NCBI GenBank assembly: GCA_944388665.1
Contig: CALXJQ010000003.1
Location: forward strand, 1-47,095
Length of the DNA stretch: 47,095 bases
From: an uncultured Clostridia bacterium
GTDB taxonomy: Bacteria > Bacillota > Clostridia > TANB77 > CAG-508
Direction of reading: 5' to 3'
In this document: positions 11,188 through 43,510 of the stretch, one piece after another
Layout of the letters: each line of letters opens with the position of its first letter
Position numbering within the stretch: position 1 is the stretch's first letter
Program-made: the position numbers and the translations under genes
Notes under the pieces: generated by a model
What the model saw: the letters and a program-made list of their open reading frames with translations, nothing else
Database searches by the model: none
What the model was told of the DNA's origin: nothing

Positions 11188-11214
11188 GAACTTTAAGGAA
11201 CGTCCCCAAAGTTC
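11188..11214. repeat. REP-like palindrome class A
   Basis: GAACTTTAAGGAACGTCCCCAAAGTTC; 7 near-identical copies in the window. Confidence 0.95.
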
Positions 11215-11220
11215 AATCTA

Positions 11221-14200
11221 CTATGCAAATAAGTTTAGTATGTCTTCCTTAGTTAATGTGCTTATGAATGAAGCTTTAGTGTCTAGCATGCTATTTGCTA
11301 AGCTGGCCTTTTTATTTTGCAATTCATATATTTTTTCTTCTATTGAATTTTTTGTTATTAGTTTATATACTTGCACATTATTTTTTTGGCCAATTCTATA
11401 AGCACGATCAGTTGCCTGGTTTTCAGTAGATAAATTCCACCACGGATCATAATGTATTACCATGTCTGCACCTGTTAAGTTTAAGCCAGTACCTCCTGCT
11501 TTTAGAGATATTAAAAATACTTTTATGTCAGGATTTGTATTAAATTCGTCAACTAATCGAATTCTATCATCTACTTTGGTGCTACCTACTAGCTTAAAAT
11601 AGTTTATTTTTCGTTTTTTTAATTCTTTTTCTATAAACTCAAACATCGCAGTATATCCAGAAAATAATAAGATTTTATGCCCTGCTTTTGTGGCATCTTC
11701 TACTACTTCTATACACTGATCTAATTTGCTACTTCCTCCTGTATAATTTTCGATAAATAGACCTGGATGGCAACAGATTTGCCTTAGTCGTGTAAGCGCT
11801 GCAAGGATTTGGATATGGCTTTTTTCATAGCCATTGAAATCAATTTCATCTGCAATCTCTTGCTTTGCTTGTGCAAGATAGGTCAGATAGATTTTCTTTT
11901 GCTCTTCACCCATTTCATTATTTAACACTGTAACTGTTTTTTCTGGTAGTTCTGTTAAAACTTCCTTTTTAGTCCTTCGCAAGATGAATGGTTCAATTAA
12001 CATCTTTAATTTTTTCATAGCATATTGATCGTTTTCTTTTATAATCGGCATTTCATACATTGTTTTGAATTTTTTGTAAGTAAACAAGTACCCAGGCATA
12101 ATATAGTCGAAAATTGACCATAACTCAGATAATGAGTTTTCTATTGGTGTTCCAGTTAGTGCATATCGAGTATCTGCTTTTATTTTTTTCATGGCTTTAG
12201 CATTTTGCGTAGTACTATTTTTTAAGTACTGCGCTTCATCTGCTATTACAAATCTAAATTGATAATCCTTGTATAAGCCTATATCTCTTTTTAATAAGTC
12301 ATAAGAAGTGATAACTAAATCATAATCATCCATATTTTGAATTAATTGCTCTCTTTCTTGTAAGTTTCCTTTAATTACTAGTGTTTTCAGATTATCTGTA
12401 AATTTTTTAGCTTCACTTTGCCAATTAAGTGTTAAAGAACTTGGTGAAACAACTAGGCTTGCTCTTTTTTTTGGCTTATCGCTATCTTCATTAATTACAT
12501 AATCAACTACTACTGATAGCATTTGCAGTGTTTTTCCTAGTCCCATATCATCTGCAAGTATTCCGCCAAATTTATAGTAGTCCAAATTTTTTAACCACCT
12601 AAAGCCCACTTTTTGATAATATCTTAAAACTTTATTCAAGTTTCCAGGAATTTGTAATTCTTCTTCTGCTTGCTCTTTGTCCAATTTATTTATCATATTT
12701 CTATATTCGTTGTTTTTTATAACTTCTGTGCCTTTTATGCCTTTTAACAGCTGATCTAAATACAAGCTTCTTTGCACAGGTAATGTTAATTCACCATTTT
12801 CTATGTCTTCATATTTAACATCCATACCATTCACAAGTTTATCTAAAAAGTCTATTTCTTTGTTGTCCTCAAGTTTTATAAAGCTTCCGTCATTCAAGCG
12901 ATAGTATTTCTTTTTTAACCTATATTTTTGCATTATATCTTCAATTTCAGTAGCATCTAAGTCCAAGTCTTTCAAATCAATAGATAATAAATTATTTTCG
13001 ATTTTGATGCCCAGAGTACCTATTTTAGGCTCTCGTATTTGTTTAGTTTTAAATTTTTCTGTGACTAAGACTTCAAATTTTTGCATATATACTGCAATAT
13101 CTTCAGATAAAAATTCGTAAATTTTATCATTATTAGTCAATATAAACCTTAAATTTTTTGTATCAAACATAAAGCCAGTTTTTCTAAACAAATTTAATGC
13201 TTTGGTTTCTTGAATCATATTTCTAGGAATTTTTACTTCATGTTTTTCATCTAAAGGATTGAATTCATTTTCTCCATAGCAAAACTTTACGTCTGCAACC
13301 AAATAATCATTTTCCTCAAAGTCTAAATAAACTTTTACAACTAATTCTTTTGGCTTATATTTTTCTATTTCTTCTTCAGACAAGTCTTGAATTTCTATTG
13401 ATTTTTTTAATTTAGGTACTATTATTGAAAATAACTTAGAGAGATCCTCCTTACCTAGCATTACTTCTGTTAAATAATTTTGCCTAAATAATTCTAATAG
13501 CTTTAATGTCGATGTTTCAAACTCCTTTGTGCATTTATAAAATTTATTTTTGTCTAATAAATATGTGTAATTTTTTCCCCTAATTATTGCAATATCAAAA
13601 ATATTAATGTTAGGTATTATAGTATATTGATTATCTGATATTTTTTGTAATTTGAATTTTATTGGTGGTTGTTCTCCAGTGAATTCTATTTCACTATTTT
13701 GGAAGTCCTTTTGGAACTTTACTTTTTTTCCTTTTAAGATTTCAAATAAATCATCTATTCCACTGTTTCCCAAAATAATGCTTGTTTCACTTAGTGCTTT
13801 GCCATAATACCTATAATTAGTATTAGAATTCGAATTAGCATATTTTATAATTTCTGCATATTTCATTAAGAAATCTAATAAAGGCTGGCTTTTTTCTTCA
13901 AACATTTCTTTTGTATGCATAAATTGTAATTTTTCACCATACCTATAATATTCCTTTTTCATCATTCTTGTATAGAATTCTGCTAAGTCTTTTATTTTGT
14001 ACATTTTTTTAGTTCCAACTTTAAATTCCACTTTCATGCCTTCTGTAAATTTGTCATAAATTACAACAGGCTCAAGTTTTATTGTTCCTCTTCCTTTTAG
14101 AAGTATATTACCATCAGCTTGATCTTCAATTTCTTCTATTTCTTCATTATAAAATGTGTTCACGATTTGGTTAAAACTTCTATATTTATTCGTTTTATTT

Positions 14201-14274
14201 TTTTCCTCTTCAGTATTCATTATTGAATTATCTATAATATTTTTATTTATTTCCATATCTTCCTCACTTGGCAT
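11221..14274 (-). CDS. SNF2-family (SWI2/SNF2) helicase
   Basis: LADDMGLGKT, DEAQ, LTGTPIEN, SLKAGGTGLNL, QATDRAYRIGQ. Confidence 0.95.
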   Translation of the reverse strand: MPSEEDMEINKNIIDNSIMNTEEEKNKTNKYRSFNQIVNTFYNEEIEEIEDQADGNILLKGRGTIKLEPVVIYDKFTEGMKVEFKVGTKKMYKIKDLAEFYTRMMKKEYYRYGEKLQFMHTKEMFEEKSQPLLDFLMKYAEIIKYANSNSNTNYRYYGKALSETSIILGNSGIDDLFEILKGKKVKFQKDFQNSEIEFTGEQPPIKFKLQKISDNQYTIIPNINIFDIAIIRGKNYTYLLDKNKFYKCTKEFETSTLKLLELFRQNYLTEVMLGKEDLSKLFSIIVPKLKKSIEIQDLSEEEIEKYKPKELVVKVYLDFEENDYLVADVKFCYGENEFNPLDEKHEVKIPRNMIQETKALNLFRKTGFMFDTKNLRFILTNNDKIYEFLSEDIAVYMQKFEVLVTEKFKTKQIREPKIGTLGIKIENNLLSIDLKDLDLDATEIEDIMQKYRLKKKYYRLNDGSFIKLEDNKEIDFLDKLVNGMDVKYEDIENGELTLPVQRSLYLDQLLKGIKGTEVIKNNEYRNMINKLDKEQAEEELQIPGNLNKVLRYYQKVGFRWLKNLDYYKFGGILADDMGLGKTLQMLSVVVDYVINEDSDKPKKRASLVVSPSSLTLNWQSEAKKFTDNLKTLVIKGNLQEREQLIQNMDDYDLVITSYDLLKRDIGLYKDYQFRFVIADEAQYLKNSTTQNAKAMKKIKADTRYALTGTPIENSLSELWSIFDYIMPGYLFTYKKFKTMYEMPIIKENDQYAMKKLKMLIEPFILRRTKKEVLTELPEKTVTVLNNEMGEEQKKIYLTYLAQAKQEIADEIDFNGYEKSHIQILAALTRLRQICCHPGLFIENYTGGSSKLDQCIEVVEDATKAGHKILLFSGYTAMFEFIEKELKKRKINYFKLVGSTKVDDRIRLVDEFNTNPDIKVFLISLKAGGTGLNLTGADMVIHYDPWWNLSTENQATDRAYRIGQKNNVQVYKLITKNSIEEKIYELQNKKASLANSMLDTKASFISTLTKEDILNLFA

Positions 14275-14401
14275 AATATTATATTATAAAATATGCTTAA
14301 AATCAAGTAGAATAATACTAATTTATTCATATTTGGGTATACTTATATTAATGTTATTTATGAATCGTATATGCGATTATTATAAAGGAGTTGAAAAATA
14401 A

Positions 14402-19440: not shown

Positions 19441-19500
19441 GAACTTTGGGGACGTTCCTTAAAGTTCAAGGTGTTTTTTTCCTCCGTCCCCAAAAACATC
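19441..19500. repeat. REP-like composite, class A (19441-19467) + class B (19470-19500)
   Basis: GAACTTTGGGGACGTTCCTTAAAGTTC-aa-GGTGTTTTTTTCCTCCGTCCCCAAAAACATC. Confidence 0.95.
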
Positions 19501-22567: not shown

Positions 22568-23704
22568 TTACAGCATTGAGGTAAAAAAAATTTTTTTGTC
22601 CTTTACCAAAATTTTTATATTTTTATTTGGAGTCAAATACTTATTTCCAATATTATTTTTACATAACCTTATAATATCCTCCACATTTATTAGACCAATT
22701 GAGTCACTACTACCAATTATATTTGTTATAGTATATAATATAATCCTTGATTTTATTACATTTTTTTGAAGATTAAATTCTTTTAAGTCTAATACAATTT
22801 CTTTTATTTTTTCATCATTTATAGGATCCTTAATTACCCTCAAAAGCATATTTCCGTAGGCTTCTCTCACTTGTTCATCAATATAATTTTGCTCATCACT
22901 AGCCAACTTCGAAAGCCTATCAAAAGTATCAATAATATTTGGGTTAAACTCTTTTTTAATATATGGAATAACTATATTTCGTATCTTATTTCTAGTATAC
23001 TCATTCTCAAAATTAGTTTTATCAATCCTTGGGTTCAAACCATGCTCTTCACAATATCTCTCAATCTCCTGCCTATCACATTCAATCAAAGGCCTAATAT
23101 ATTTGCCTCTCTTAGGTTCAATACCTATCAATCCATTAACTCCACAACCTCTAAACAAATGCATAATTATCGTTTCAACCTTATCATTCTTATTATGTGC
23201 AATAGCAATCTTATTCGCGCCAGTCTCCTTCAAAACCTCATCAAAAAATTCATATCTTGCTTTTCTTCCTGCTTCTTCCACTCCTATCTTCTTATTATTA
23301 GCCAAACTCATCACATCTATGCTTTTCGCATAAAACTTTATGCCATTTTTCTCGCAATACTCCTTAACATACTGCTCATCATCCTTTGCTTCTTCCCTAA
23401 TAAGGTGATTTACGTGAGCCACCACCAAAAAATTTGCCAAGAGGGACGTAGCGTTTTGGCAATTTTTTGCCACTGGGGACGTACCTTTTTGGCAATTTTT
23501 TGCCATTTTGCTACGTCCCTCTTGGCAATTTGTGAAAATAAAATTGTTTTCTTTTTGAAGCTTTAATAAAATGTCCAGCATGCACATTGAATCTGGACCA
23601 CCTGAAACTCCAAGTACAATTTTATCTCCTGGATTTATTAAGTTAAACTTTCTAATAGTATTAGCAACTTTATCTTTTAATGTTATTTTTTGGCAATCAT
23701 GCAT
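22568..23704 (-). CDS. tilS: tRNA(Ile)-lysidine synthetase carrying an in-frame REP-derived insertion
   Basis: SGGPDS PP-loop, AHVNH, ARY, AHNKNDKVET, RPL, RNKIR; upstream of ftsH; start is ATG 23704 or GTG 23713. Confidence 0.95.
   Translation of the reverse strand: MHDCQKITLKDKVANTIRKFNLINPGDKIVLGVSGGPDSMCMLDILLKLQKENNFIFTNCQEGRSKMAKNCQKGTSPVAKNCQNATSLLANFLVVAHVNHLIREEAKDDEQYVKEYCEKNGIKFYAKSIDVMSLANNKKIGVEEAGRKARYEFFDEVLKETGANKIAIAHNKNDKVETIIMHLFRGCGVNGLIGIEPKRGKYIRPLIECDRQEIERYCEEHGLNPRIDKTNFENEYTRNKIRNIVIPYIKKEFNPNIIDTFDRLSKLASDEQNYIDEQVREAYGNMLLRVIKDPINDEKIKEIVLDLKEFNLQKNVIKSRIILYTITNIIGSSDSIGLINVEDIIRLCKNNIGNKYLTPNKNIKILVKDKKIFFTSML
23430..23531. repeat. REP-like class C trimer inside tilS
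   Basis: Three TTGCCA...TGGCAA hairpins at a 33-bp period, each with a GGGACGT core (third one inverted). Confidence 0.95.
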
Positions 23705-23709: not shown

Positions 23710-24106
23710 TCACCCTTTCTTATCTAATTGCCTCAAAGTTTCTCTGCTTACACCTATTACACTTTCTATTTCTCTATATGAAACACCATAAGTAACTTTC
23801 AATGTATGCACTACTTCTTTTAGTTTTTCTCTGTTTCCCCTTTTTGAAGCTAAAATAGGCGAAATTCCTTGTTCATTCAATTTGTCAATAATTAAATTTC
23901 TGTTATCAGCTTTTTTATCAGTCTTCTCCTCCAAAAATGCGAATTCATTATTTTCTTCTGCATCGCACTCTTTCAAATTGGCACCTTCTATGATTCGTCC
24001 AACACTTTGGTATAATCTTGTTCTATCCGCTCCATACATTTTGGTAAAACTAGAATATTAGATGAAAAAATAGGGATATATTATTGTTTCTTGCTCTTCT
24101 TGTAAT
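23710..24106 (-). pseudogene. Internally deleted REP-associated tyrosine transposase (RAYT/TnpA-REP, Y1 HUH family) remnant
   Basis: Frame 24106-24050 reads ITRRARNNNISLFFHLIF* (like the RAYT N-terminus M.R.AR...FFH). A different frame from 24057 reads YSSFTKMYG... ending in an HTH-like GVSYREIESVIGVSRETL. The HUH and catalytic Tyr/NPV segment is absent. Class C repeats lie on both sides. Confidence 0.7.
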
Positions 24107-24327: not shown

Positions 24328-24347
24328 TACTTTTTTAAAAGAATATC

Positions 24348-24420
24348 AAAAATTTGCCAAGAGGGACGTAGCTTAATGGCAAAAAATTGCCAAAAAGCTA
24401 CGTCCCTGGTGGCAAATTTT
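24348..24420. repeat. REP-like class C inverted doublet
   Basis: TTTGCCAAGAGGGACGTAGCTTAATGGCAAA + TTGCCAAAAAGCTACGTCCCTGGTGGCAAA. Confidence 0.93.
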
Positions 24421-24440
24421 AAAATTATAAATATTAAAAT

Positions 24441-24618
24441 ATAGCTGTATTTCTATTAAATTTATGCAATGACGAATGCGATTGGAGTGGTTGTAGCCAT
24501 TCTTGATATTAAATAAATGAGGGCGCGCTTCGCGAGAGGCTCGTTTGTTTAATATTTAGAATGGCTAAACCACGCATTGAGCCGAGGAATGAATAAATTT
24601 AATAGAAATATCAGCTAT
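24441..24618 (+). other. 178-nt rod-like hairpin with a central bubble (palindromic element or structured ncRNA)
   Basis: Outer stem ATAGCTG-TATTTCTATTAAATTTAT / ATAAATTTAATAGAAATA-TCAGCTAT; inner stem of about 33 bp, TGGTTGTAGCCATTCT...AAATGAG / CTCGTTT...AGAATGGCTAAACCA. Confidence 0.8.
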
Positions 24619-24639
24619 TATTATAGTAGTAATAGATAA

Positions 24640-24712
24640 AAATTTTGCCATCAAGGGCGTTCATCTTGGGCAAAGCCTTGACAAAAATGAGATGTCTCTG
24701 CTGGCAAAATTT
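24640..24712. repeat. Degenerate class C doublet
   Basis: AAATTTTGCCA...TGGCAAAATTT outer arms with decayed cores (AGGGCGTT, GATGTCTC). Confidence 0.7.
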
Positions 24713-24718
24713 AAAAAT

Positions 24719-24795
24719 GAACTTTAAGGAACGTCCCCAAAGTTCACGAAGAATGTTTTTGAGATGTTTTTTTCCTCCGTCCCCAAAAACACCTC
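24719..24795. repeat. REP-like class A (24719-24745) + class B (24761-24795)
   Basis: GAACTTTAAGGAACGTCCCCAAAGTTC and GAGATGTTTTTTTCCTCCGTCCCCAAAAACACCTC. Confidence 0.95.
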
Positions 24796-29176: not shown

Positions 29177-29179
29177 GTT

Positions 29180-32100: not shown

Positions 32101-32842
32101 CTCCATCTAATTGGACCATTGGTCTTAAATCTGGTGGTATTACTGGAACAACTTGCATTATCATCCATTCTGGTCTATTTCCTGAAATTCTGAATGCTTC
32201 TACAGTGTCCCATCTTTTGATTAATTTTCCCTTTTTCTGTTCACTTGCATGTTGCAATTCTTTCTTTATTTCTGCAGATAATTTATCCAAATCAATCTCT
32301 TGTAGTAGTTCTCTTAATGCTTCTGCACCCATTTTTGCAACAAATGAACCTTTACCATATTTTTCTTCTGCCTCGTGATATTCTTTTTCATTTAATATTT
32401 GGCATTTTTCAAGATCTGTTGTGCCTTTGTCTATTACTATATATGACGCAAAATATATTACTCTTTCCAAGTTCCTTGGTGAAATATCTAGCATTAAAGC
32501 TATTCTGCTTGGAATTCCTTTAAAATACCAAATATGTGCTACTGGTGCAGCAAGCTCTATATGTCCCATTCTCTCACGTCTAACTTTAGATTTTGTGACT
32601 TCTACACCGCAACGATCACAGACTATTCCTTTATATCTAACTCTCTTATACTTACCACAATGGCACTCCCAGTCCTTTGTAGGTCCAAATATTCTCTCAC
32701 AGAACAAACCATCTTTTTCTGGTTTTAAAGTTCTGTAGTTAATTGTCTCTGGCTTTTTTACTTCTCCTTTTGACCACTCTCTAATCTTTTCATCTGATGC
32801 AATACCTATTTTTAATTTATTAAAAGTATTTAACTCATCCAC
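29180..32842 (-). CDS. rpoC: RNA polymerase beta-prime subunit
   Basis: [12 protein letters not shown] catalytic motif; zinc finger; [11 protein letters not shown]. Confidence 0.99.
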
Positions 32843-32873
32843 TTATAGTATTCTCCCTTCACTTGAATTTTTC

Positions 32874-35800
32874 TTAATCTTCTTCGTCATTATCATTTTC
32901 TAAGTTGTCTTCTGCCAAGTCATTATCAAATAGCATACCGTCATCTTCATCATCTAAATCGTCAAATAATTCGTCTTTACCATCATCTAAGCTATCATCT
33001 TCGTCATCAGCATCATCTGATTCTTCTACATAGCCGTCGTCTAAATCTCCTTCTTCTATTACTTCATCTTCTGATAAGATTTTCTTGTCTTTTTCCGGAT
33101 CATATTCTATGCCATCATCTATATCTTCTTTTAGCTCAAGTTCTTTGTTGTCTTCAGTATATAGACGCACATCTAAGCCTAAAGACTGCAATTCTTTTAC
33201 TAAAACTTTGAAGCTTTCTGGAATTCCTGGCTCTGGAATATTTTCGCCTTTTACAATTGCCTCATAAGTTTTAACACGTCCTACAACATCATCTGATTTT
33301 ACTGTCAACATTTCTTGTAATGTATATGCTGCGCCATAAGCCTCTAATGCCCAAACTTCCATTTCTCCGAAACGTTGTCCACCAAATTGTGCTTTACCTC
33401 CAAGTGGTTGTTGAGTTACCAATGAGTATGGTCCAGTTGAACGAGCATGTATTTTGTCATCAACTAAGTGGTGTAGTTTTAACATATACATAACACCTAC
33501 TGTAATTGGCTTATCAAAAGGATCTCCTGTTCTTCCATCATAAAGAATTGTTTTTCCATCTTCGCTCATTCCTGCTTTTTTTAGTAACTCTTTTACATCT
33601 TCTTCATTTGCCCCATCAAATACTGGAGTAGAAACTTTCCATCCTAGAGCTTTTGCTGCGCCTCCTAAGTGAACTTCTAGTACTTGACCTAAGTTCATAC
33701 GTGAAGGAACACCTAGTGGGTTCAATAAAATATCAATTGGTGTACCATCTGGCATAAATGGCATATCTTCTTCTGGCAATACTCTTGAAATAACACCTTT
33801 ATTACCATGACGTCCAGACATTTTATCACCTACTGAAATTTTTCTTTTTGTTGCTATATAACATCTGATTATTTGATTTACACCTGGTCCTAATTCTTCT
33901 GAATTTTCTCTTGTGAATATTTTTACATCTACAATTGTTCCTGCTTCACCATGTGGTACTCTAAGTGATGTATCTCTTACTTCTCTTGCTTTTTCACCAA
34001 AGATAGCTCTAAGTAGCCTTTCTTCAGCTGTTAGCTCTGTTTCTCCCTTTGGAGTTACTTTTCCTACTAGTATATCTCCTGGGCGAACTTCTGCACCAAT
34101 TCTGATAATACCGTTTTCATCCAAGTCTTTTAACGAATCATCGCCGATATTTGGTATATCTCTAGTTATTTCTTCAGGTCCCAATTTTGTATCACGACAT
34201 TCACAATCATATTCTTCTATATGTATTGATGTGAATACATCTTCTTTTACTAATCTTTCATTTATTAAAATAGCATCCTCATAGTTATATCCTTCCCAAG
34301 TTGAAAATGCTACTAATACGTTTTTACCTAATGCCATTTCTCCATTGCTTGTTGAAGGTCCATCAGCTATTGCATCGCCTTTTTTTACTATTTCACCCTT
34401 TTTAACAATTGGTCTTTGATTTATACAAGTTCCACCATTTGTTCTTTTAAATTTACAAAGTTTATGAACAACTGTCTTACCATTTTTATATTTCATTGTA
34501 ATGCTATCGCCTGTTACTTTTTCGACTGTTCCATCATCTTCGGCCAAAACTAATATTCCTGAATCCTTAGCTGCTCTATACTCAATTCCTGTTCCTACAA
34601 TTGGGCTTTCTGTTATCATAAGTGGAACAGCTTGACGTTGCATGTTTGCACCCATTAGGGCTCTTTTTGCATCATCATGCTCCAAGAATGGAATCATTGC
34701 CGCAGCTATAGAAACTAATTGTTTTGGTGAAACATCAACATATTGCACTCTGTCTCTATCTACTTCAATTATATCATTTCTATATCTAACTCTAATTCTC
34801 TTATTTACGAATCTTCCCTCTTCATCAACTGGCTCTGCAGCTTGAGCTATTATGTAATTATCTTCTACATCCGCACTCATATATTCTACAATGTCAGTTA
34901 ATTTATGTGTTTCTGGGTCTACTTTACGATATGGAGTTTCAATAAATCCATACTCATTGATTTTTGCAAATGATGAAAGTGCAGAAATTAGTCCTATATT
35001 TGGGCCTTCTGGTGATTCTATTGGGCATAACCTTCCATAGTGAGTATAGTGAACATCACGAACCTCAAATCCTGCTCTCTCTCTTGTTAATCCTCCTGGT
35101 CCAAGTGCAGAAATTCTTCTTTTATGTGTTAACTCTGACAATGGGTTTGTTTGATCCATGAATTGTGACAATTGTGAACTTCCAAAGAATTCACGAATTG
35201 CAGATGTAATAGGCTTTGTATTTATTAGAGTTTGTGGTGTTACTACATCTAAGTCTTGTATTGTCATTCTTTCACGTACGACTCTTTCTAGCCTCGTTAA
35301 CCCAATTCTGAATTGATTTTGCAACAATTCGCCTACGCAACGAATTCTACGGTTTGCTAAGTGGTCTATATCGTCTGTCTTTCCAACATTATGTGAAAGA
35401 TTTAGTAAATAGCTTACAGAAGCAATCATGTCCTCAGTTGTAATATGTTTTGGTACTAACTCATTATGCCTTTCTTTTAATACTTTTAGTAAATCTTTTT
35501 TATCTGTATGATCTATTATATCTTTTAAGACATTGTAGTTTACAAATTCTTTAAAATTCAATTCTGAAAGATCAACGTCTGGTAACACTTTGTGTATATC
35601 TACTGTGCCATTTCCGATTACTTTTACTTTTCTATCATTTACCATAATCTCTACAGTATTTATTCCTGAATTTTGAATATTTTCTGCTACTTCTGGAGTA
35701 ATAGTTTCACCTGCTTGTACAAATACTTCTCCTGTCTCACCATCTACAATATCACTTGCAGCTACCTGATTTTTAATTCTAGCAGATAAAGCTAATTTTT

Positions 35801-36632
35801 GGTTAAATTTATATCTTCCGACTTTTGCCAAATCATATCTTCTATTATCAAAAAACAAGCCATTAAACAAATTTTTGGCAGCATCTGCAGTTGGCAATTC
35901 TCCTGGTCTTAATTTTTTATAAATTTCTATTAAAGCCTCATCCTGATCTTTAATTGGGTCTTTTGCAATTGTAGCATTTATTAGCTCCTCATCACCAAAT
36001 AACTCTTTTATTTGATTATCAGTTATTACACCAATAGCCCTCAACAATGTAGTTACAGGAACTTTTCTTGTTCTATCAACACGAACCCAGAAAATATCAT
36101 TTCCATCTGTTTCATATTCAAGCCAAGCACCACGAAGTGGCATTACTGTTGATGTGTAAGTCTTTTTTCCAGTTTTTGTATCAAATTCTTCTGCATAGTA
36201 GCATCCAGGTGAACGAACTAACTGGCTTACAACAACCCTTTCCGCACCATTTATTATGAATGTACCACTATCAGTCATCAATGGAAAATCTCCCAAATAA
36301 ATCTCTTGCTCTTTAATTTCTCCTGTTTCACGGTTAATCAACCTAACTTTTACATGTAACCTTGTTGAATAAGTAGCATCTCTTTCCTTAGCTTCTTCTA
36401 AGGTATATTTAGTTTTGTCCTCCATGTAGTAATCGAAAAATTCAAGAACTAAATTTCCAGAATAATCTTCAATTGGCGAAATATCTCTTAAAACTTCTCC
36501 TAATCCCTCTTTTACGAACCAATCATAAGAATCCTTCTGTACTTGAATCAAATTTGGCATCTCAATATAGTCGCCAACCTTTGCGAAATCTTTACGAGAA
36601 GCTTTCTCGTACTTAACTTCTTTAATTTTCAA
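32874..36632 (-). CDS. rpoB: RNA polymerase beta subunit
   Basis: [44 protein letters not shown]; TTG start after AAAGGAG. Confidence 0.99.
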
Positions 36633-36842
36633 AAAAAACCACTCCTTTAAAAAAATTAAGCAGATTTGAAATATAAAAAAACAATTGTTAAAAGAAGTCC
36701 TTCTTGTCTACAATTCATCAACTACTTACATCAGCCTACCTGCTCCTGTATGCCAATATCCGTAGCAACTCCTCATATCCAATTCCTCTTCTTTTACTTT
36801 TACTTTTGAATATAAGTTTTAATTTGCATAAAAATATATAAT

Positions 36843-36872
36843 ATAATATCACACTTGTCCTAATAAAGTCAA
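36843..36872 (-). promoter_or_regulatory. Probable sigma-A promoter of rpoBC
   Basis: TTGACT-18 bp-TATTAT with a TGn extension. Confidence 0.55.
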
Positions 36873-36893
36873 GTATTTTTCAAAAATTTTTTT

Positions 36894-36926
36894 AGGTGTT
36901 TTTGGGGACGGAGGAAAAAAACATCT
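36894..36926. repeat. REP-like class B
   Basis: AGGTGTTTTTGGGGACGGAGGAAAAAAACATCT. Confidence 0.95.
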
Positions 36927-37188
36927 TGAATTCTCGGTTCATTATCCTCATCAAGAACTTCTAAATCAATTTTGTGGCTCCCTTCCAAAAACAAGTTTTT
37001 GAACTCTTTCCACAAAATTGATAAAGAAGTTCTAAGTGAGTCTAATTCACATTCGAACATATTCCTAAAATAATTACATATATCATCAATAAAATTCTTA
37101 TAAATAGAAAAAACGGTGAGCTTTAAAGAACATTTCAAAAGTTTATTTTTTATTAATAATAGCAAAGATAATATGATAAATAATTTTT

Positions 37189-37215
37189 GAACTTTAAAGA
37201 ACGTCCCCAAAGTTC
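37189..37215. repeat. REP-like class A
   Basis: GAACTTTAAAGAACGTCCCCAAAGTTC. Confidence 0.93.
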
Positions 37216-37264
37216 ACTAAAAAAATATGCTCTAAATGCTGAAAAATAAAGGAAAAATGAAGAT

Positions 37265-37291
37265 GAACTTTAAGGAACGTCCCTAAAGTTC
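37265..37291. repeat. REP-like class A overlapping the stop codon of the AI-2E gene
   Basis: GAACTTTAAGGAACGTCCCTAAAGTTC. Confidence 0.93.
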
Positions 37292-38411
37292 ATTTTTTTG
37301 AAAGTTTATATTCAACGTAATCTTCGACTAGTATTTTTATAACTGCAATTGCTGGAACTGCCAAAAACATGCCAAGTATGCCAAAGTATGCACCGCCAAC
37401 TGTTACAGCAAAGATTACTAATAGTGGGCTTATTTTTAATGATTGGCCAATTATTTTTGGATTGATTATGTTTGCATCTATTTGTTGCAAAATTATTACT
37501 ACAATAATCATCCAAATTGTTTTGCTTAATCCACCTGTAATTAATGTGATAATTGCAGCTATTACGCACGCTATAATTGCGCCGAAATATGGAATCATGT
37601 TAAATATTCCTATTAAAAATCCTAGTAATGGAGCATATTTAACTTGCATTATTGTCAATGCGATTGTTACCAAAATGCCTACTATTACTGCATCTAAAAA
37701 CTGACTAGCTATAAATTTGAAAAATATTTCATTTGAATTGTCAAAGTACTTGTCTAAATTTTTATATGTTCTTTCTTTGAAAAGTGCCTCTGACAATCTT
37801 TTTAAGAATCTTATTATTTTTGATCTTTCTGCTAATATGTATACAGAAACAACAACTGCAACAAATATATCAAATAGACTTGTAACAGCTGATATTGCAT
37901 TTTCAATATATGACAATACCTTATCTACTTGGAAATATTGCTTAATATCTATCCCCTGTATGCTTTTTATGGCATCATTGACTATGTCTCCTTTTAGCCA
38001 AGAATTTTCTGGTAAATCGTTATATTTTTGTATTGCTAGTTCAAAATAGTGTTGAATGTTATTAACTAGGTCTGTTATACTTTCAGCCACAACAGGTATG
38101 ATAAAGTTCATCAAAATTAGTATTATTAAAAATATTATTAAATAAACAGCAAAAATTCCAAGGGCCCTAGCTCTTTTTGAGATAAATTTTAATTTACATT
38201 TTTTGAAGGCTCCTTCAAATTTTCTACATGGCAAATATAGCAAATATGCTATAAACACTCCTGAAAAGAATGGTGCCATTATTTCAAAGAACTTAGTCAC
38301 CACGTTTTTCACACCACTAAAGTCCCCTAGTGCTTTATATACAACTATTACAGCTACAGCTAGTACAAACCAATATAGCCACTTTTTCCAATGACTTTTT
38401 ATTTCACTCAT
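37290..38411 (-). CDS. AI-2E family (PerM-like) transporter
   Basis: Multiple transmembrane helices; NMIPYFGA, QQIDANIINPKIIG, GILGMFLAVP. Confidence 0.92.
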   Translation of the reverse strand: MSEIKSHWKKWLYWFVLAVAVIVVYKALGDFSGVKNVVTKFFEIMAPFFSGVFIAYLLYLPCRKFEGAFKKCKLKFISKRARALGIFAVYLIIFLIILILMNFIIPVVAESITDLVNNIQHYFELAIQKYNDLPENSWLKGDIVNDAIKSIQGIDIKQYFQVDKVLSYIENAISAVTSLFDIFVAVVVSVYILAERSKIIRFLKRLSEALFKERTYKNLDKYFDNSNEIFFKFIASQFLDAVIVGILVTIALTIMQVKYAPLLGFLIGIFNMIPYFGAIIACVIAAIITLITGGLSKTIWMIIVVIILQQIDANIINPKIIGQSLKISPLLVIFAVTVGGAYFGILGMFLAVPAIAVIKILVEDYVEYKLSKK

Positions 38412-38424
38412 CAGATTTCCCCCT

Positions 38425-39180
38425 TTACAAAGAAATTTCTAATCCGATTGGGCAATGGTCGCTTCCCATAATTTCTGGATAAATTTCAGCATTCTGTATT
38501 TTATTTGCAATATCTTTTGAAACTATAAAGTAGTCAATTCTCCACCCTATATTTTTTTCTCTAGCTCGTCCCATGTAAGACCACCAACTATATGCATCTA
38601 CTTTATCTGGATATAGGTATCTAAATGAATCTACAAAGCCTGCATTTAACAATTCTGTCATTTTTTCTCTTTCTTCATCTGTAAAACCTGCATTTCCTCT
38701 ATTTGATTTTGGATTTTTTAGGTCAATCTCTTCATGTGCAACATTCAAATCTCCACACATTATGACAGGCTTTGTTTTATTCAGCTGCAATAAATATTTT
38801 CTTATTTCATCTTCCCACACTTGCCTATATGCTAGTCGCTCTAATTCCCTTTTAGAATTTGGAGTATATATATTTACCATATAAAATTTCTCAAATTCAA
38901 GCGTTATAACTCTTCCTTCTTTGTCATGCTCAGGGATTCCAATTCCATAGCTAATGGCATTTGGCTTTTCTTTACTAAAAATAGCAGTACCTGAATATCC
39001 TTTTTTCTCAGCACTGTTCCAATAACTTTGGTATCCCTCAAAATTCAATTCAATTTGCCCAGGCTGACACTTAGTTTCTTGTATACAAAAAATATCTGCA
39101 TCAGCACTTTTAAAAAAATCACTAAAGCCTTTATTAACACATGCTCTTATTCCATTTACATTCCAAGATATTAACTTCAA
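38425..39180 (-). CDS. exoA: Exodeoxyribonuclease III / AP endonuclease (ExoA/Xth)
   Basis: KLISWNVNGIRA, QETK, GDLNVAH, WRIDY, SDHCP; TTG start at 39180 after AGGAG. Confidence 0.96.
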   Translation of the reverse strand: MKLISWNVNGIRACVNKGFSDFFKSADADIFCIQETKCQPGQIELNFEGYQSYWNSAEKKGYSGTAIFSKEKPNAISYGIGIPEHDKEGRVITLEFEKFYMVNIYTPNSKRELERLAYRQVWEDEIRKYLLQLNKTKPVIMCGDLNVAHEEIDLKNPKSNRGNAGFTDEEREKMTELLNAGFVDSFRYLYPDKVDAYSWWSYMGRAREKNIGWRIDYFIVSKDIANKIQNAEIYPEIMGSDHCPIGLEISL

Positions 39181-39200
39181 TTTATTTTCTCTCCTTTTCT

Positions 39201-39300
39201 GAACTTTGGGGACGTTCCTTTTTGGCACAAAAAAGATGTTTTTTTCCTCCGTCCCCAAAAACACCCAAAAAATGAACTTTAAGGAACGTCCCTAAAGTTC
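39201..39300. repeat. REP cluster: A/C chimera (39201-39227), class B (39234-39264), class A (39274-39300)
   Basis: GAACTTTGGGGACGTTCCTTTTTGGCA; AGATGTTTTTTTCCTCCGTCCCCAAAAACAC; GAACTTTAAGGAACGTCCCTAAAGTTC. Confidence 0.93.
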
Positions 39301-39313
39301 ATTTGTGCACATT

Positions 39314-40261
39314 TTAGTTTACTACAGTAACTGGTAAATACCTTACGCCCCATTGTATTGCTTCTGTTTTTGAATTTACAAATATATCAAGTTTGTTGCC
39401 TTTTATTGCTCCACCTCTATCTTCAACTGTATAGATATGACCGCCTATATTTAATTTTGTTCCAAATGCAAATTGTGAAGATGCAGCAACTGTTCTGCCT
39501 TGAACTGGCTTTGTACCTGAAGCTGTTCTTCCTGTGCCTGAGCCTTCTGCTAAAGTGTATGCTGTTATTTTAAATACTGTACCTCCGGCATTTGCACTGG
39601 TATTTATACTACTAGTTAATGAACTTGATGTTCTAGGTAAACTCATTGACCTTGATGTTGCCTTTTTGCTAATTTGGACTATTTTATCAACAGGTTCTTG
39701 AACTATTTTTTCTGATAAAACAGTTCTTTCTATCTCTTGATTATTTTGATATTTTACTTTATATGTTATTTCTTTTAAGCCTTCTTTTCCTTCTTGTAGT
39801 ACCTTGCTTGTTGTATTTCCATCACTTGCCACTGAATTTTTTGTAATTGTTTCATAAGGTATAGCCTCTTGCTCTACAATTATTTTTTCCGTAATAGGTG
39901 CATAGTTTTCTAGCAATTGATCTAATGTAGTCTGTGTACCTTCCTCAGAAATTTTAGCTATTTGAACTTCATTATATGACTTGTCTGTTATTTTGATGCT
40001 TTGACCTGCTGTAACTTCAGCATCCAAGTCTGGTATTGTCTTTTGATTTTCGTCTAAAATTATATTATTTTCCTTCAAAATGTCTGACACCTTTGTTTTT
40101 GATGTCAAAGCTGTCATTTCATAACCATTTTCCAATGTTATTTTTACATCATTTAATTTTGTGTTTACTGCCATAACTCCTATTCCTGAAATAAGAATTA
40201 GGATAACACTAATGCATATTATTTTCATTATAGAAATCGAAGCTTTTTCTTCTTTTTTCAT
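39314..40261 (-). CDS. YabE-like cell-wall protein with G5 and 3D domains
   Basis: N-terminal transmembrane helix; G5-like IPYET...QEGKEG; 3D domain ITAYT, TASG, VEDRGGAIKGNKLDIF. Confidence 0.88.
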   Translation of the reverse strand: MKKEEKASISIMKIICISVILILISGIGVMAVNTKLNDVKITLENGYEMTALTSKTKVSDILKENNIILDENQKTIPDLDAEVTAGQSIKITDKSYNEVQIAKISEEGTQTTLDQLLENYAPITEKIIVEQEAIPYETITKNSVASDGNTTSKVLQEGKEGLKEITYKVKYQNNQEIERTVLSEKIVQEPVDKIVQISKKATSRSMSLPRTSSSLTSSINTSANAGGTVFKITAYTLAEGSGTGRTASGTKPVQGRTVAASSQFAFGTKLNIGGHIYTVEDRGGAIKGNKLDIFVNSKTEAIQWGVRYLPVTVVN

Positions 40262-40297
40262 AATAAATTTATTACCTCCTTTTTTGGCAACAATTAA

Positions 40298-40326
40298 ATT
40301 ATACTATTTTTTTCTTTTCTTGTCAA
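40298..40326 (-). promoter_or_regulatory. Consensus sigma-A promoter of the G5/3D gene
   Basis: TTGACA-17 bp-TATAAT on the minus strand. Confidence 0.85.
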
Positions 40327-40609
40327 ATTTATGAAAATCCTTATATTATAGTATATGCATAATTTTTCCAGATATAACCATTTTGATGAACTTGTCTCAT
40401 TTCAACACATATAGTTATTTTTTAATAATTTTTTTTTAAATATTACATATTTTTCACAAATTCTACACAAAATTGTTGTATAAGTTTAATTAATATGTTA
40501 TTATCTAATCGTATATAATATATATAAAAAATATTTAGTTGCTTGCTACAGCATTGTGTTTTTTACACTTGCTGGGCGTACTTACAGCAACGGAAATGGA
40601 GGTTTATAT

Positions 40610-41161
40610 ATGGGTTGGATTATACTTGCAATTGTTGTAATTGTTGTTATTGCTGTCATTGCAATGTACAATAGTTTAGTTCAAAGTAAAATTAAAGTTG
40701 ACAATGCATGGAGCCAAATTGATGTTCAATTGCAAAGAAGATTTGATTTGATTCCTAACTTCGTAGAAACTGTTAAAGGTTATATGACACATGAAAAATC
40801 AACATTTGAAAAAATTGCAGAACTTAGAACTTCATGGGCTAACAGCCAAACTGTAGCAGAAAAAGCTTCTATTGATAATCAATTATCAGATGCTTTAAAA
40901 ACAATTATGGCTGTATCTGAAGGTTATCCTGAGTTAAAAGCTAATCAAAACTTTTCAGAGCTATCTGAAGAATTAAGAAATACAGAAAATAAAATTTCTT
41001 TTGCTAGACAATTTTACAATGATACTGTAACTGCTTACAACACAAAATTAGAAGTATTTCCTTCTAACATAATTGCTGGAATTTTTAAATTTAAACCACG
41101 TGATTTGTTTGAAGCAGAAAATGACGAAGCTAGAAAAAATGTAAAAGTAAATTTTAATTAG
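40610..41161 (+). CDS. lemA: LemA family protein
   Basis: YNSLV, AWSQIDVQLQRRFDLIPN, YPELKAN, FPSNIIA; ATG 40610 after GGAGG. Confidence 0.95.
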   Translation: MGWIILAIVVIVVIAVIAMYNSLVQSKIKVDNAWSQIDVQLQRRFDLIPNFVETVKGYMTHEKSTFEKIAELRTSWANSQTVAEKASIDNQLSDALKTIMAVSEGYPELKANQNFSELSEELRNTENKISFARQFYNDTVTAYNTKLEVFPSNIIAGIFKFKPRDLFEAENDEARKNVKVNFN

Positions 41162-41175
41162 AGATTGGAGTAAAA

Positions 41176-42081
41176 ATGTTTAAAAGTATCAAGAAAAACA
41201 AAATAGAGTCTGGCGTTATTGTTGGAATTTTTATTCTTGTCATCACATTAATCGTATATTTTATATGTAATGCATTAAATTTAGGATATCTTTCAATAGT
41301 AATTGCTTTAATAATCTCTATAGCATCAGCTTGGGGCTCTTACTATTATAGTGACAGAATTGTTCTTTCTATGAGCAATGCCAGACCTGCTACTAAAGAA
41401 GAGGATCAAAAATTAGTAAATATTTTAGACGCTTTGATGCTAGCTGCCGGCTTACCATCAAAGCCTAGATTATACGTTGTAGATGACCCTCAGCCTAATG
41501 CTTTTGCTACTGGAAGGAATCCTCAAAATGCTGTAATATGCGTCACAACTGGCTTACTTGAAAAACTAGATTATTACGAGCTTGAAGGAGTTATTGCACA
41601 TGAAATGAGCCACATTAGAAACTATGATATTTTGCTTAGTTGTGTAGTGTCTGTGATGGTCGGTTTTATAGTAATGTTAGCAGACATGTTTTCTAGGCTA
41701 CTTTTCTGGGGTGGACTAAGTGACAATGATAATGACCGTGGCAATGGAAATGTTATTTTAATGTTAATAGGTCTAGTTTGTTTGATTCTTTCTCCGATAT
41801 TTGGTACACTTATGCAACTTGCACTTTCAAGGAAAAGAGAATTTTTAGCTGACAGCACTGCCGTAGAATTTACCCGTAATCCAGAGGGACTAATTTCAGC
41901 ATTAGAAAAGCTCGAGGCAGACCCTAATCAATTGGCTACCGCTAACAGCGCTACAGCCAACATGTACATCGTCAGTCCATTCAAAAGCAACACCAAAGAA
42001 GGTAAGAAAAAGCGTTCCAGCATCTGGTCTACGCACCCAAGCACCGAAGCCAGAATTGAAGCTTTACGAAAACTAGAATGA
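41176..42081 (+). CDS. htpX: Zinc metalloprotease HtpX (M48)
   Basis: PNAFATGRNP, HEMSH, SRKREFLAD, STHP; follows lemA. Confidence 0.95.
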   Translation: MFKSIKKNKIESGVIVGIFILVITLIVYFICNALNLGYLSIVIALIISIASAWGSYYYSDRIVLSMSNARPATKEEDQKLVNILDALMLAAGLPSKPRLYVVDDPQPNAFATGRNPQNAVICVTTGLLEKLDYYELEGVIAHEMSHIRNYDILLSCVVSVMVGFIVMLADMFSRLLFWGGLSDNDNDRGNGNVILMLIGLVCLILSPIFGTLMQLALSRKREFLADSTAVEFTRNPEGLISALEKLEADPNQLATANSATANMYIVSPFKSNTKEGKKKRSSIWSTHPSTEARIEALRKLE

Positions 42082-42175
42082 ACTTGATGTTTGAGGGATG
42101 TTTTTGGGGACGGTGTTTTTGGGGACGGAGGAAAAAAACATCTTTGTTGCCATCAGGGACGTACCTTTTTGGCAA
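42079..42175. repeat. REP cluster: class A stub, duplicated partial B, class B (42112-42142), class C (42147-42175)
   Basis: TGAACTT; GATGTTTTTGGGGAC; GGTGTTTTTGGGGACGGAGGAAAAAAACATC; TTGCCATCAGGGACGTACCTTTTTGGCAA. Confidence 0.93.
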
Positions 42176-42203
42176 TTTTTGTATTGATGGGAAGTTATGA
42201 AAA

Positions 42204-42590
42204 ATGAAGATACTTTGTGGAACAGATATTATTGAAATCAATCGTGTAAAAGATAGCATTAAGCAAGTAGGCGATAGATTTTTGCAAAAAGTGTACACTA
42301 AAAATGAAATTGAATATTGCGAAAGTAAAAAAGTCCAGAAATATCAGCACTATGCTGCTAGATTCGCCGCAAAAGAAGCAACGTTCAAGGCTATTTCTGG
42401 GCTAATTTCTAAATATGATATTTCTTGGAATGATATAGAAGTACTGAATGATGAAAATGGCAGACCTTACTTAAATTTGCTTGGGAAGGCAAAGGGAAAA
42501 ATTATACCTAAAATTAATAGTATAGATATTACAATTTCTCACTGCAAAGAATATGCTGTTGCAAATGTAGTGATATTATTAAATGACTAG
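42204..42590 (+). CDS. acpS: Holo-ACP synthase
   Basis: GTDIIEINR, AARFAAKEA, GRP, ITISH. Confidence 0.95.
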   Translation: MKILCGTDIIEINRVKDSIKQVGDRFLQKVYTKNEIEYCESKKVQKYQHYAARFAAKEATFKAISGLISKYDISWNDIEVLNDENGRPYLNLLGKAKGKIIPKINSIDITISHCKEYAVANVVILLND

Positions 42591-42649
42591 CATTAGTTTT
42601 AGTGCTAATAGTATAGTGCAATAATATTATTTATTTTGGAGGCGGAAAA

Positions 42650-43447
42650 ATGGAATTTTTTGATAGTCACGCTCATTTGGATGATGCAAAGTTCGATTCA
42701 GATAGAGAAAAATTAATTGATGAAATTTATAAATCTGGCGTTACAAAGCTAGTATCAGCAGGATACAGCTTAGAAGGGTCCAAAAAAGGCGTCGAGCTCG
42801 CCAATAAATATGATTTTATTTATACAACAAGTGGCATTTCCCCAAATGATGTTCCAGAGGGCGACGATTTTCCACAATTAGAGAACAATTTGTGGAAAAC
42901 TTTAACAAAAATAAAAGATTTAGCAAAACAAAATTCTAAAGTTGTTGCTATAGGAGAAATTGGCTTAGATTATTATTGGAATAAAGAAAATAAAGACTTA
43001 CAAAAGCTGGCTTTTACAGCCCAAATTGACATCGCAAATGAACTAAATTTGCCAATTGTAATACACACTAGGGAAGCTGTGATGGACACGCTTCAGATTC
43101 TGAAAGAACACCCTGTAAATCAAAAAGGAGTATTTCACTGTTGCCCTTTAAACAGAGAATTAGTAAAAGAGGCCCTAAAGCTAGACTTTTTCATTTCTTT
43201 TGCTGGCCCAGTGACATTCAAAAATTCAAAAAATGCCAATGAAATCGTTAATCTAGTGCCACTAGACCACATTTTAATTGAAACAGATAGTCCTTACCTA
43301 TCCCCTGAACCATTAAGAGGCAGAAGAAATGACTCAAGAAATGTAAAATATATTGCACAAAAAATCGCAGACTTTAGAGGAATTTCCTTAGAAAAAGTGG
43401 CACAAATAACATATCAAAATGCGAAAAAAATATTTAAAATTTCTTAA
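42650..43447 (+). CDS. tatD: TatD family nuclease
   Basis: DSHAHL, GEIGLDY, IHTREA, FHC, ETDSPYL. Confidence 0.95.
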   Translation: MEFFDSHAHLDDAKFDSDREKLIDEIYKSGVTKLVSAGYSLEGSKKGVELANKYDFIYTTSGISPNDVPEGDDFPQLENNLWKTLTKIKDLAKQNSKVVAIGEIGLDYYWNKENKDLQKLAFTAQIDIANELNLPIVIHTREAVMDTLQILKEHPVNQKGVFHCCPLNRELVKEALKLDFFISFAGPVTFKNSKNANEIVNLVPLDHILIETDSPYLSPEPLRGRRNDSRNVKYIAQKIADFRGISLEKVAQITYQNAKKIFKIS

Positions 43448-43449
43448 AC

Positions 43450-43510
43450 GAACTTTGGGGACGTTCCCCAAAGTTCAAGATGCTTTTTTCCTCCGTCCCC
43501 AAAAACACCT
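43450..43510. repeat. REP-like composite A (43450-43476) + B (43478-43510) between convergent genes
   Basis: GAACTTTGGGGACGTTCCCCAAAGTTC-a-AGATGCTTTTTTCCTCCGTCCCCAAAAACACCT. Confidence 0.95.

Follow-up and report, generated by a model that had tools for sequence, protein, structure and literature searches.

The stretch analysed here, 47,095 bases corresponding to contig C3 of the assembly of an uncultured Clostridia bacterium (G000; hereafter the window is the whole of this stretch), carries three classes of short hairpin repeats, designated A, B and C, that all enclose the word GGGACG. The three classes are probably explained by a transposase-linked hairpin system resembling the repetitive extragenic palindromes (REPs) and the REP doublets forming hairpins (REPINs) of other bacteria. 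Classes A, B and C would be small non-autonomous elements that belong to single-copy Y1 (HUH) enzymes of the REP-associated tyrosine transposase (RAYT) type, in a long form that would carry a C-terminal helical domain resembling a helix-turn-helix (HTH). A preliminary description of the window, made from its letters alone, had proposed a REP-like system that lacks the GTAG tag and is tied to Y1/HUH enzymes, and the analysis of the whole genome supports this main point, since Y1 genes flanked by their own repeat class were found and GTAG was not.

Three hairpin classes in one small genome

All 19 repeat copies listed in the preliminary description are present in the window (seven of class A, six of class B and six of class C), with the class A starts exact and the class B starts within 1-2 nucleotides (nt) of those given earlier; decayed or chimeric hairpins are present as well, such as the one at 39201-39227. 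The word GGGGACG occurs 14 times in the window compared with a mean of 0.34 and a maximum of 3 in 100 dinucleotide-preserving shuffles, and the seven occurrences of the class A arms (GAACTTT..AAAGTTC) compare with an expectation of 0.02. Confinement of the repeats to the window, which the preliminary description had named as grounds for rejecting its reading, was not observed. When the entire assembly (1,405,889 bases, or 1.41 Mb, in 97 contigs with 30.7% G+C and an estimated completeness of 98%) was catalogued, allowing up to four mismatches to each class consensus and assigning each copy to the strand that reads GGGGACG, 329 copies were obtained (176 of class A, 62 of class B and 91 of class C, the last comprising 47 C1 and 44 C2 copies), and the reversed consensus of each class gave no match anywhere in the genome. 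Similarly, GGGGACG has 231 sites genome-wide, where about 12.7 are expected from base composition, and the great majority of the 400 genomic GGGACG sites lie in class A, B or C contexts. On a crude map of open reading frames (ORFs), 308 of the 329 copies, each 27-31 nt long, fall outside ORFs; many of the remaining 21 are located at the ends of ORFs, for which the map probably sets the start too far upstream. In Rfam, no family reached its gathering score on the window.

Class A copies are near-palindromes of 27 nt, or 29 nt if the usual flanking T and A are counted, whose G-rich strand folds into a 12-pair stem containing G-T pairs and closed by a 3-nt tip, while the opposite strand forms 7 + 3 pairs. 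Class B is a 31-nt hairpin with an A/T stem of 7-8 bp and a 13-nt loop that starts with GGGGACGGAGG, and class C is a 29-nt hairpin with the stem TTGCCA/TGGCAA and a 17-nt loop, of which the two 5' and two 3' half types combine almost freely, mixed combinations accounting for 37 of 97 classified copies. Folding of each class placed GGGACG inside the hairpin, as had been anticipated for (G)GGGACG, and the single-strand DNA folds range from -3.1 to -5.9 kcal/mol, indicating that these AT-rich stems are weak.

The copies are arranged with a marked polarity. Neighboring class A copies form 35 A(+)A(+) pairs, 33 of which have gaps of 47-56 nt, and 31 A(+)A(-) pairs compared with no A(-)A(+) pair. 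Likewise, class C neighbors comprise 30 "+ -" pairs versus a single "- +" pair, and the gap within the 24 C1(+)C2(-) pairs is exactly 4 nt in 23 cases and 3 nt in one; A and B neighbors are often spaced by 2 or 8 nt. The 49-nt spacer of the class A doublets is homologous among copies, falls into three subfamilies and is far more diverged than the hairpins, and the orientation of the loop can be flipped relative to it. A CRISPR-like reading of the constant 76-nt period of these doublets was rejected, since the spacers are diverged copies of one another, and the idea that the class C junction TGGCAA-N4-TTGCCA is a sigma-54 promoter was set aside, its GG-to-GC spacing being by our count one base short of the consensus. 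In addition to doublets, longer imperfect palindromes bracketed by repeats were found. An A-bracketed element of 250-300 nt is present in 14 genomic copies with 89-98% mutual identity, 11 of them with A(+)...A(-) brackets, and a C-bracketed element occurs at 10 loci that are 86-98% identical to the window copy at 24416-24660. The RNA fold of positions 24431-24625, which lie inside this C-bracketed palindrome, has an energy of -77.8 kcal/mol.

Twenty-eight class A copies have a contig edge in their context, and many contig ends lie in or beside repeats. Much of the fragmentation into 97 contigs is probably caused by the repeats, and the copy numbers given above are therefore lower bounds. Near-identical sequence was found in public runs of eight studies, labelled as chicken gut and dust metagenomes, and the corresponding public Logan contigs also end at repeats (for example at 24766, 39258/39275, 42126/42141 and 43516); joints between public contigs at repeats were discarded as cross-repeat artefacts.

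Y1 enzymes and the repeat classes that flank them

The preliminary description had called for a genome search with the Pfam family Y1_Tnp (PF01797) and for identification of the class flanking each gene. This search returned two genes, both outside the window, with scores of 46.9 and 43.2 bits (cut-off 23) and E-values of 2e-11 and 3.5e-10 for the two proteins. Each gene is bracketed by one class in inverted orientation. The gene on contig C5 (258 amino acids, aa) has a B(+) copy 60 nt upstream and a B(-) copy 172 nt downstream, and the gene on contig C34 (276 aa) has two A(+) copies on one side and two A(-) copies on the other. At both genes the G-rich strand is in the sense orientation upstream and antisense downstream, and the longest inverted repeats flanking the genes measure 41 nt (class B) and 72 nt (class A). 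The dispersed doublets and the longer bracketed palindromes share this "+ ... -" polarity and are like enzyme-less miniatures of the gene cassette. A Y1/HUH gene was thus found for class A and for class B, and none for class C. A tblastn search of the genome with both proteins gave no third copy; the best additional match (contig C58, E 0.067) falls within the gene of a threonyl-tRNA synthetase and is spurious. The ORF of the class A enzyme contains at its 3' end a class A-like copy with three mismatches (C34:11369-11395), and the last ~20 codons of this ORF may consequently be repeat-derived. From their translations, the neighbors of the enzyme genes are presumably an ABC-F-like ORF, a CorA-like ORF and a membrane protein.

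Over their full length, the two Y1 proteins share 36% identity. Among 15 aligned homologues of 246-276 aa, the HUH histidines (NHAH), the tyrosine motif YIHxNPVKA and a pair of serines (S140 and S141, the SS pair) are invariant. The only sequence match in the PDB was E. coli TnpA-REP (4ER8, E 8.9e-5), and the same structure is the nearest to an AlphaFold model of mean pLDDT 80.5 (TM 0.72 on the target), followed by the TnpA proteins of IS608 and ISDra2. The modelled enzyme has a predicted helical C-terminal bundle (residues 188-255), for which the sole HTH sequence match is weak (Pfam HTH_24, E 0.009, below threshold). Residues W94 and Q95 of E. coli TnpA-REP, which are listed among the GTAG-interacting residues in the passage of Quentin et al. 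(2018, PMC6006769) that treats them, align with F and R here in an invariant and a near-invariant column, respectively; as judged from the alignment, this replacement would fit recognition of a different word.

Homologous enzyme loci were then compared across relatives. Homologues were present in 60 of 81 sampled genomes of the genus (G000 included), and a search of genome contigs gave 562 relatives, of which the best 79 loci were kept. A motif filter left 101 of 110 loci with an intact ORF, encoding 97 distinct proteins that include the two of G000; the nine loci dropped were L012, L020, L024, L037, L038, L045, L073, L076 and L083. The hosts of the 79 contig loci are mostly uncultured gut Clostridia, and also include Sporomusa, Syntrophomonas, Thermoanaerobacter, Lentibacillus, Dorea and others. 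Flanks were searched for a perfect stem of 5-8 bp enclosing GGGAC[GA], on the sense strand upstream and the antisense strand downstream. Such a hairpin was found on at least one flank at 81 of 101 loci and on both flanks at 48, compared with 5, 0, 1, 3 and 9 loci when each of five controls (its reverse, three permuted forms and one related word) took the place of the loop word, and 10 loci for the real loop word in the opposite polarity. The stems of these hairpins vary (GAACTTT, TGATTTT, TTGCCA, TGTCAA, GGGATT, TGAGACA, CAATCA, GAGTCA and others) and the start of the loop is constant, with GGGGACGGTTC common to distant homologous loci. The earlier proposal that the internal core would be the recognition signal is supported by comparison only, in that the word is kept while the stems change.

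To place the loop types on the enzyme phylogeny, a quick maximum-likelihood tree with support from the Shimodaira-Hasegawa-like approximate likelihood-ratio test (SH-aLRT) was used. Loop types track enzyme clades, requiring 34 changes compared with a shuffled mean of 62.8, and none of 200 shuffles gave a value as low; such counts describe a pattern among related genomes. The clade of the class A enzyme (SH-aLRT 100) has class A hairpins in all four rows, the clade of the class B enzyme (support 98) has GGGACGGAG loops in 10 of 12 rows, and class C-like hairpins flank a separate clade (L019, L010 and L041) with no member in G000. Each class travels with its own enzyme clade. For example, the class A enzyme has orthologues of 59-64% identity in three other genomes, G043, G093 and G094, which contain 49, 60 and 23 class A copies, respectively, at up to one mismatch, and no copies of class B or class C; the exact class A pattern was absent from a sample of 30 other relatives that excludes G043.

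Abundance of the word also follows presence of the enzyme. At least 50 GGGGACG sites were counted in 27 of the 59 genus genomes with a homologue (20 of which have at least 100) versus none of the 21 without one. The median was 40 sites with a homologue and 5 without (maximum 43), and the reversed word used as a control had a median of 23 over the 80 genomes. Given the latter value, GGGGACG seems to be avoided in genomes that lack a RAYT homologue.

Signs of movement, a probable host role and competing explanations

Alignment to relatives, which the preliminary description had suggested as a means to recognize empty and filled sites, revealed window sites that are filled here and empty in the sister genome G043 (68-85% identity in aligned genes). 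G043 lacks ~94 nt, comprising an A copy, a B copy and half a C copy, at the site of 19441-19500, and its sites matching 42112-42175 and 43450-43509 are repeat-free. Comparison of the filled site with its empty counterpart showed no visible target-site duplication. Where the window has its first class A copy (11178-11220 in the window; L124, G043:C75 ~3515-3675), G043 carries a hairpin class of its own, with TGTCCAA/TTGGACA stems, the loop word GGGGAC[A/G] and units spaced by 4 nt. Homology to G043 ends at about 23425, at the class C triplet 23434-23528, which places the triplet upstream of the real gene start rather than within the gene. In addition, the two-gene segment 42189-43440 is inverted relative to the relatives, and by parsimony the inversion would have arisen in the lineage of the window. 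Both junctions of this segment are repeat-free in G043, and one of them has an ordinary terminator-like hairpin there. The repeat features of the window are collected in Table 1.

Table 1. Repeat hairpins and associated features in the window, with positions counted from its first base
Feature	Position	Strand	Remarks
Class A hairpin	11188..11214	-	Directly 3' of the stop of minus-strand ORF 11221-14274
Class A hairpin	19441..19467	+	2 nt from class B at 19470; block missing at the orthologous site of G043
Class B hairpin	19470..19500	-	Followed by half a class C arm (TGGCAA)
Class C triplet, 4-nt gaps	23434..23528		C1(+) 23434-23462, C2(+) 23467-23495, C1(-) 23500-23528
Class C inverted doublet, 4-nt gap	24354..24415		C1(+) 24354-24382, C2-like(-) 24387-24415
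Long imperfect palindrome	24416..24660		10 genome loci, usually class C-bracketed; no Rfam match
Class A hairpin	24719..24745	-	Flagged terminator-like
Class B hairpin	24763..24793	-	Directly 3' of the stop of minus-strand ORF 24804-26138
Class B hairpin	36895..36925	+	Left bracket of element 36931-37139
Imperfect-palindrome element copy	36931..37139	+	14-copy family; left bracket here class B, usually class A
Class A direct doublet, 49-nt spacer	37189..37291	-	37189-37215 and 37265-37291, both flagged terminator-like
Chimeric hairpin	39201..39227	+	Class A 5' arm and loop joined to class C2 3' arm
Class B hairpin	39235..39265	-	From the consensus catalogue
Class A hairpin	39274..39300	-	8 nt from the B copy; 3' of the stop of minus-strand ORF 39314-40261
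Class B hairpin (42112-42142)	42093..42142	+	Own 5' arm and core partly duplicated just before it; site empty in G043
Class C2 hairpin	42147..42175	+	4 nt from the B copy
Two-gene segment	42189..43440		Inverted relative to G043 and G093; inverted class B flanks 42112-42142 and 43479-43509
Class A variant hairpin	43450..43476	+	Upper stem GGGG/CCCC fully paired
Class B hairpin	43479..43509	-	2 nt from the A copy; site empty in G043

Repeats of different classes accumulate at the same places, as the preliminary description had claimed. A copy is present in 138 of 919 intergenic regions, and the odds ratios for sharing a region are 17 for A with B, 6.3 for B with C and 3.1 for A with C. Chimeric hairpins were also found, consisting of an A 5' part and a C2 3' arm (five cases), a B 5' part and an A 3' part (one) or a C2 5' part and an A 3' part (one), with exchange points within the shared core or loop. 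Furthermore, 21 of 62 class B copies, including both B copies beside the class B enzyme gene, have directly upstream of them half of a 5' arm (17 of B type and 4 of A type) that terminates in TTTG(G)(G). The related claim that older repeats act as landing targets for other classes is only suggestive: it agrees with the co-occurrence, the fixed 2- and 8-nt A/B spacings and the abutting half-arms, but the same picture could come from permissive sites, slippage or spread of composite units.

We propose a mechanism in which the enzyme would bind the hairpin that single-stranded DNA folds into and would read the invariant loop word GGGAC(G/A) as a family-wide signal, taking the role that GTAG has in classical REPs, and class specificity would come from the stem and perhaps also from the 3' half of the loop. 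The enzyme would then cut and rejoin nearby, so that copies spread slowly, and many of them would probably have been retained, or exapted, as RNA hairpins at 3' ends or as weak intrinsic terminators. In HUH replication initiators, the nick falls in the loop of an origin hairpin, and IS200/IS605 elements and E. coli TnpA-REP rely on a guide tetranucleotide located at the stem foot. We put forward, as a tentative and rather doubtful extension, that the enzymes of this RAYT-like branch may recognize a conserved word at the hairpin tip and perhaps nick it. Loop-directed strand exchange onto older hairpins would leave as its footprints the chimeras that exchange in the shared core or loop, the TTTGG-ending half-arms at one third of B copies and the flipped loops. 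Class C would be either an orphan family in decay or one that is cross-mobilized.

Several observations weigh against a transposase-linked explanation or limit how far it reaches. GTAG is absent from the consensus sequences and flanks of the classes, nor does GT[AG]G stand at the foot of the stems, and the best NCBIfam model for the two enzymes, REP_Tyr_transpos, scores 69 and 65 bits, below its cut-off of 80. Class C, with 91 copies, has no cognate Y1 gene in the assembly by Pfam search and tblastn. Twenty of the 101 homologous loci lack a flanking hairpin under the strict test, many homologue-bearing genomes have few GGGGACG sites, and the relatives are not independent samples, so that the counts are to be read as a pattern and not as probabilities. 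The intergenic placement depends on a crude ORF map (1,214 ORFs of at least 90 aa covering 86.5% of the DNA). Public contigs break at the repeats, where insertion polymorphism within the species would have to be read. Counts by replication strand show no bias for class A (75 versus 76) or class C (40 versus 38) and a mild one for class B (34 versus 17); lagging-strand targeting is therefore unsupported, where a bias of the IS200/IS605 type might be expected. Given the bias behind stop codons described below, much of the hairpin conservation could result from selection for a role in RNA. Finally, binding, the site of cutting and transposition by the enzymes are steps that we infer.

Among competing explanations, the one that survives best, although we consider it improbable, is that the hairpins are primarily host 3'-end RNA hairpins or intrinsic terminators, with the Y1 link secondary or the Y1 genes domesticated; as an added role, such a function is compatible with the transposase-linked explanation. 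Of the copies located within 30 nt of a stop codon, 56 of 63 in class A, 33 of 34 in class B and 22 of 26 in class C have their G-rich strand in the mRNA sense. A T-rich tail follows the G-strand hairpin in 105 of 176 class A copies compared with 62 after the other strand, and class A supplies 3 of the 12 terminator-like sites detected by a consensus scan of 24001-44000. Variants in the class A upper stem preserve G-U or Watson-Crick pairs on the G strand only, and conservation is far higher in the hairpins than in the spacer of the doublets. The position behind stops, the G-rich strand in the mRNA and the G-U pairs that lengthen the stem only there together argue for a role at RNA 3' ends, and since the copies look terminator-like, a host role besides mobility is likely. 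Copies occupy convergent intergenic regions most often (30 of 106, compared with 90 of 709 tandem and 18 of 104 divergent regions). Nevertheless, the stems of classes B and C are weak with loops of 13-17 nt, the T tail is inconsistent in class B (28 of 62), and class A orientation is balanced genome-wide, with 88 copies per strand. A host role alone would also leave unexplained the inverted own-class flanks of the Y1 genes, the phylum-wide design, the way in which class A follows orthologues of its enzyme and the restriction of large populations to genomes with the enzyme. The preliminary description had held that repeats acting only as terminators would speak against it; class A does look terminator-like, but that role by itself does not account for the enzyme link.

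Judged from the assembly and its relatives, it is very unlikely that the repeats are miniature inverted-repeat transposable elements (MITEs) or solo ends of a DDE insertion sequence, or that they spread by recombination and slippage without a dedicated enzyme. The longer bracketed elements in 10-14 copies, the chimera exchange points in shared microhomology, the tandem partial duplications of the class B 5' arm and the inversion lying between inverted B copies could all be read in this way. However, the two Y1 genes were the only transposase genes found beside the repeats, the comparison of filled and empty site showed no target-site duplication, the units are conserved-loop hairpins of 27-31 nt rather than terminal inverted repeats of a longer element, and the link between enzyme and class holds across genomes. 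Least credible of all, and only marginally entertained here, is that GGGACG is the site of a host DNA- or RNA-binding protein and the hairpins a dispersed regulon signal: the word is invariant amid varying surroundings and rarer than its reverse in genomes without the enzyme, but the 329 copies stand behind unrelated genes, have a fixed polarity around the Y1 genes and are filled in one species and empty in another at orthologous sites, no candidate binding protein was found, and abundance tracks presence of a Y1 gene.

Relation to described systems and significance

By published descriptions, the transposase-linked system described here fits the TIRYTs, TnpA-Y1 subclass 2.1 and Bertels Group 1. 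In the TIRYT passages of Di Nocera et al. (2013, PMC3733652), TIRYTs and TIRtrons are RAYT-like genes flanked by terminal inverted repeats that are not GTAG REPs; many of these repeats contain GGGGWSAS, some are self-complementary, some form moderately abundant families, and dimers or clusters occur, and those passages do not mention Firmicutes or Clostridia. Most TIRYTs were tentatively equated with TnpA-Y1 subclass 2.1 by Quentin et al. (2018, PMC6006769), whose account of this subclass gives a median length of 238 aa, C-terminal HTH-like domains and an SS motif and, in Table 1, a correspondence to Bertels Group 1. According to the same account, automatic and manual searches gave no REP-like sequences near subclass 2.1 genes, whereas REP-like sequences accompany five subclasses and atypical secondary structures a further two. 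Similarly, the relevant passages of Bertels et al. (2017, PMC5581495) attribute abundant flanking 16-mers only to Groups 2 and 3, Group 1 averaging 12 occurrences, and record that Group 1 RAYTs occur also in Clostridia; REPINs are tied only to Groups 2 and 3 in the corresponding passages of Bertels and Rainey (bioRxiv 10.1101/2021.07.10.451892).

The likeness to TIRYTs lies in the enzyme, which is of the RAYT-like Y1 type, measures ~240-280 aa, has an SS motif and ends in an HTH-like tail, and in the inverted repeats around its gene, which share a G-rich word. The loop words GGGGACAC and GGGGACAG of several relatives fit GGGGWSAS exactly; the loop word of G000, GGGGACGG or GGGGACGT (that is, GGGGACG[G/T]), has G at position 7 where GGGGWSAS has A. 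The published key motifs NH[VYF]H and Y[IV]HLNP/YIELNP are close to, and not identical with, NHAH and YIH[NF]NP here. The differences are that the word lies here in the loop of a short hairpin with a co-varying stem, an anatomy not stated for TIRYTs in the passages cited above, and that three classes coexist with 329 copies in 1.4 Mb. Thus, the idea of a non-GTAG REP system put forward in the preliminary description stands, with the qualification that RAYT-linked GGGGWSAS repeats had already been described as TIRYTs/TIRtrons (PMC3733652). The main texts of the literature collection that was searched yielded no description of the present families or of this placement of the loop word, and the parts of RepRanger 2025 (PMC12306157) bearing on repeats contain nothing on a GGGACG-loop family. 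What is new compared with the papers cited is the hairpin-with-loop-word anatomy with co-varying stems, conserved across Bacillota, and the occurrence within a single small genome of several abundant classes together with enzymes that are specific to a class.

Other known systems share some of these features. Classical REPs carry a GTAG tag outside the stem and are processed by RAYT HUH nucleases, the classical work on REP/REPIN-RAYT systems reportedly being that of Nunvar in 2010 and of Bertels and Rainey in 2011. Like the REPs, bacterial interspersed mosaic elements and REPINs of E. coli and Pseudomonas, the present repeats are short extragenic palindromes that number in the hundreds, form inverted doublets and lie downstream of genes, with a single-copy Y1/HUH gene amid its own class and several classes and enzymes per genome. 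They differ from classical REPs (compared with the RAYT, or TnpA-REP, account in Messing 2012, PMC3479197) in having no 5' GTAG at the stem foot, a conserved word inside the hairpin, AT-rich weak stems, a low-GC host of the Bacillota and an enzyme distant from 4ER8. The CGTC-tagged REPs described in Di Nocera et al. (2013, PMC3733652) have an unpaired CGTC at one end, a stem of 8-9 bp, a loop of 4-5 nt and a CCA tail; the passage on them reports no linked transposase and an occurrence in five phyla, Firmicutes not among them. The reverse complement of the present core contains CGTC, and both kinds of repeat are short palindromes that often form head-to-head dimers. Membership in the CGTC-tagged REPs was rejected on anatomy, however, since CGTC is found here in a 13-17 nt loop or, in class A, at the tip of a 12-bp stem; in addition, two of the classes have an enzyme. 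Finally, IS200/IS605 elements (IS608 and ISDra2) resemble the present cassettes in the Y1 HUH fold, in the subterminal hairpins that flank the cassette and in the single-strand DNA chemistry to be expected. In contrast to these insertion sequences, which have multi-copy, near-identical tnpA genes with a Y...Q motif and often tnpB, the two genes here are 36% identical, have Y...NP, are vastly outnumbered by the hairpins and have no adjoining tnpB.

Subclass 2.1 is the largest RAYT branch and has no known function, and the two enzymes of this genome fit its description, each with an abundant hairpin family that offers a concrete substrate for biochemistry on the branch. Together, two enzyme-repeat pairs and one orphan family constitute a natural system in which specificity, cross-mobilization and decay can be studied. 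The repeats would also explain in part why metagenome assemblies of gut Clostridia are fragmented, since contigs break there, and the copies behind stop codons are candidates for shaping transcript 3' ends in organisms without genetics. If the reading of a word at the hairpin tip is true, lasting REPIN-RAYT partnerships would exist with Group 1-type enzymes in Gram-positive gut bacteria, against the published generalization.

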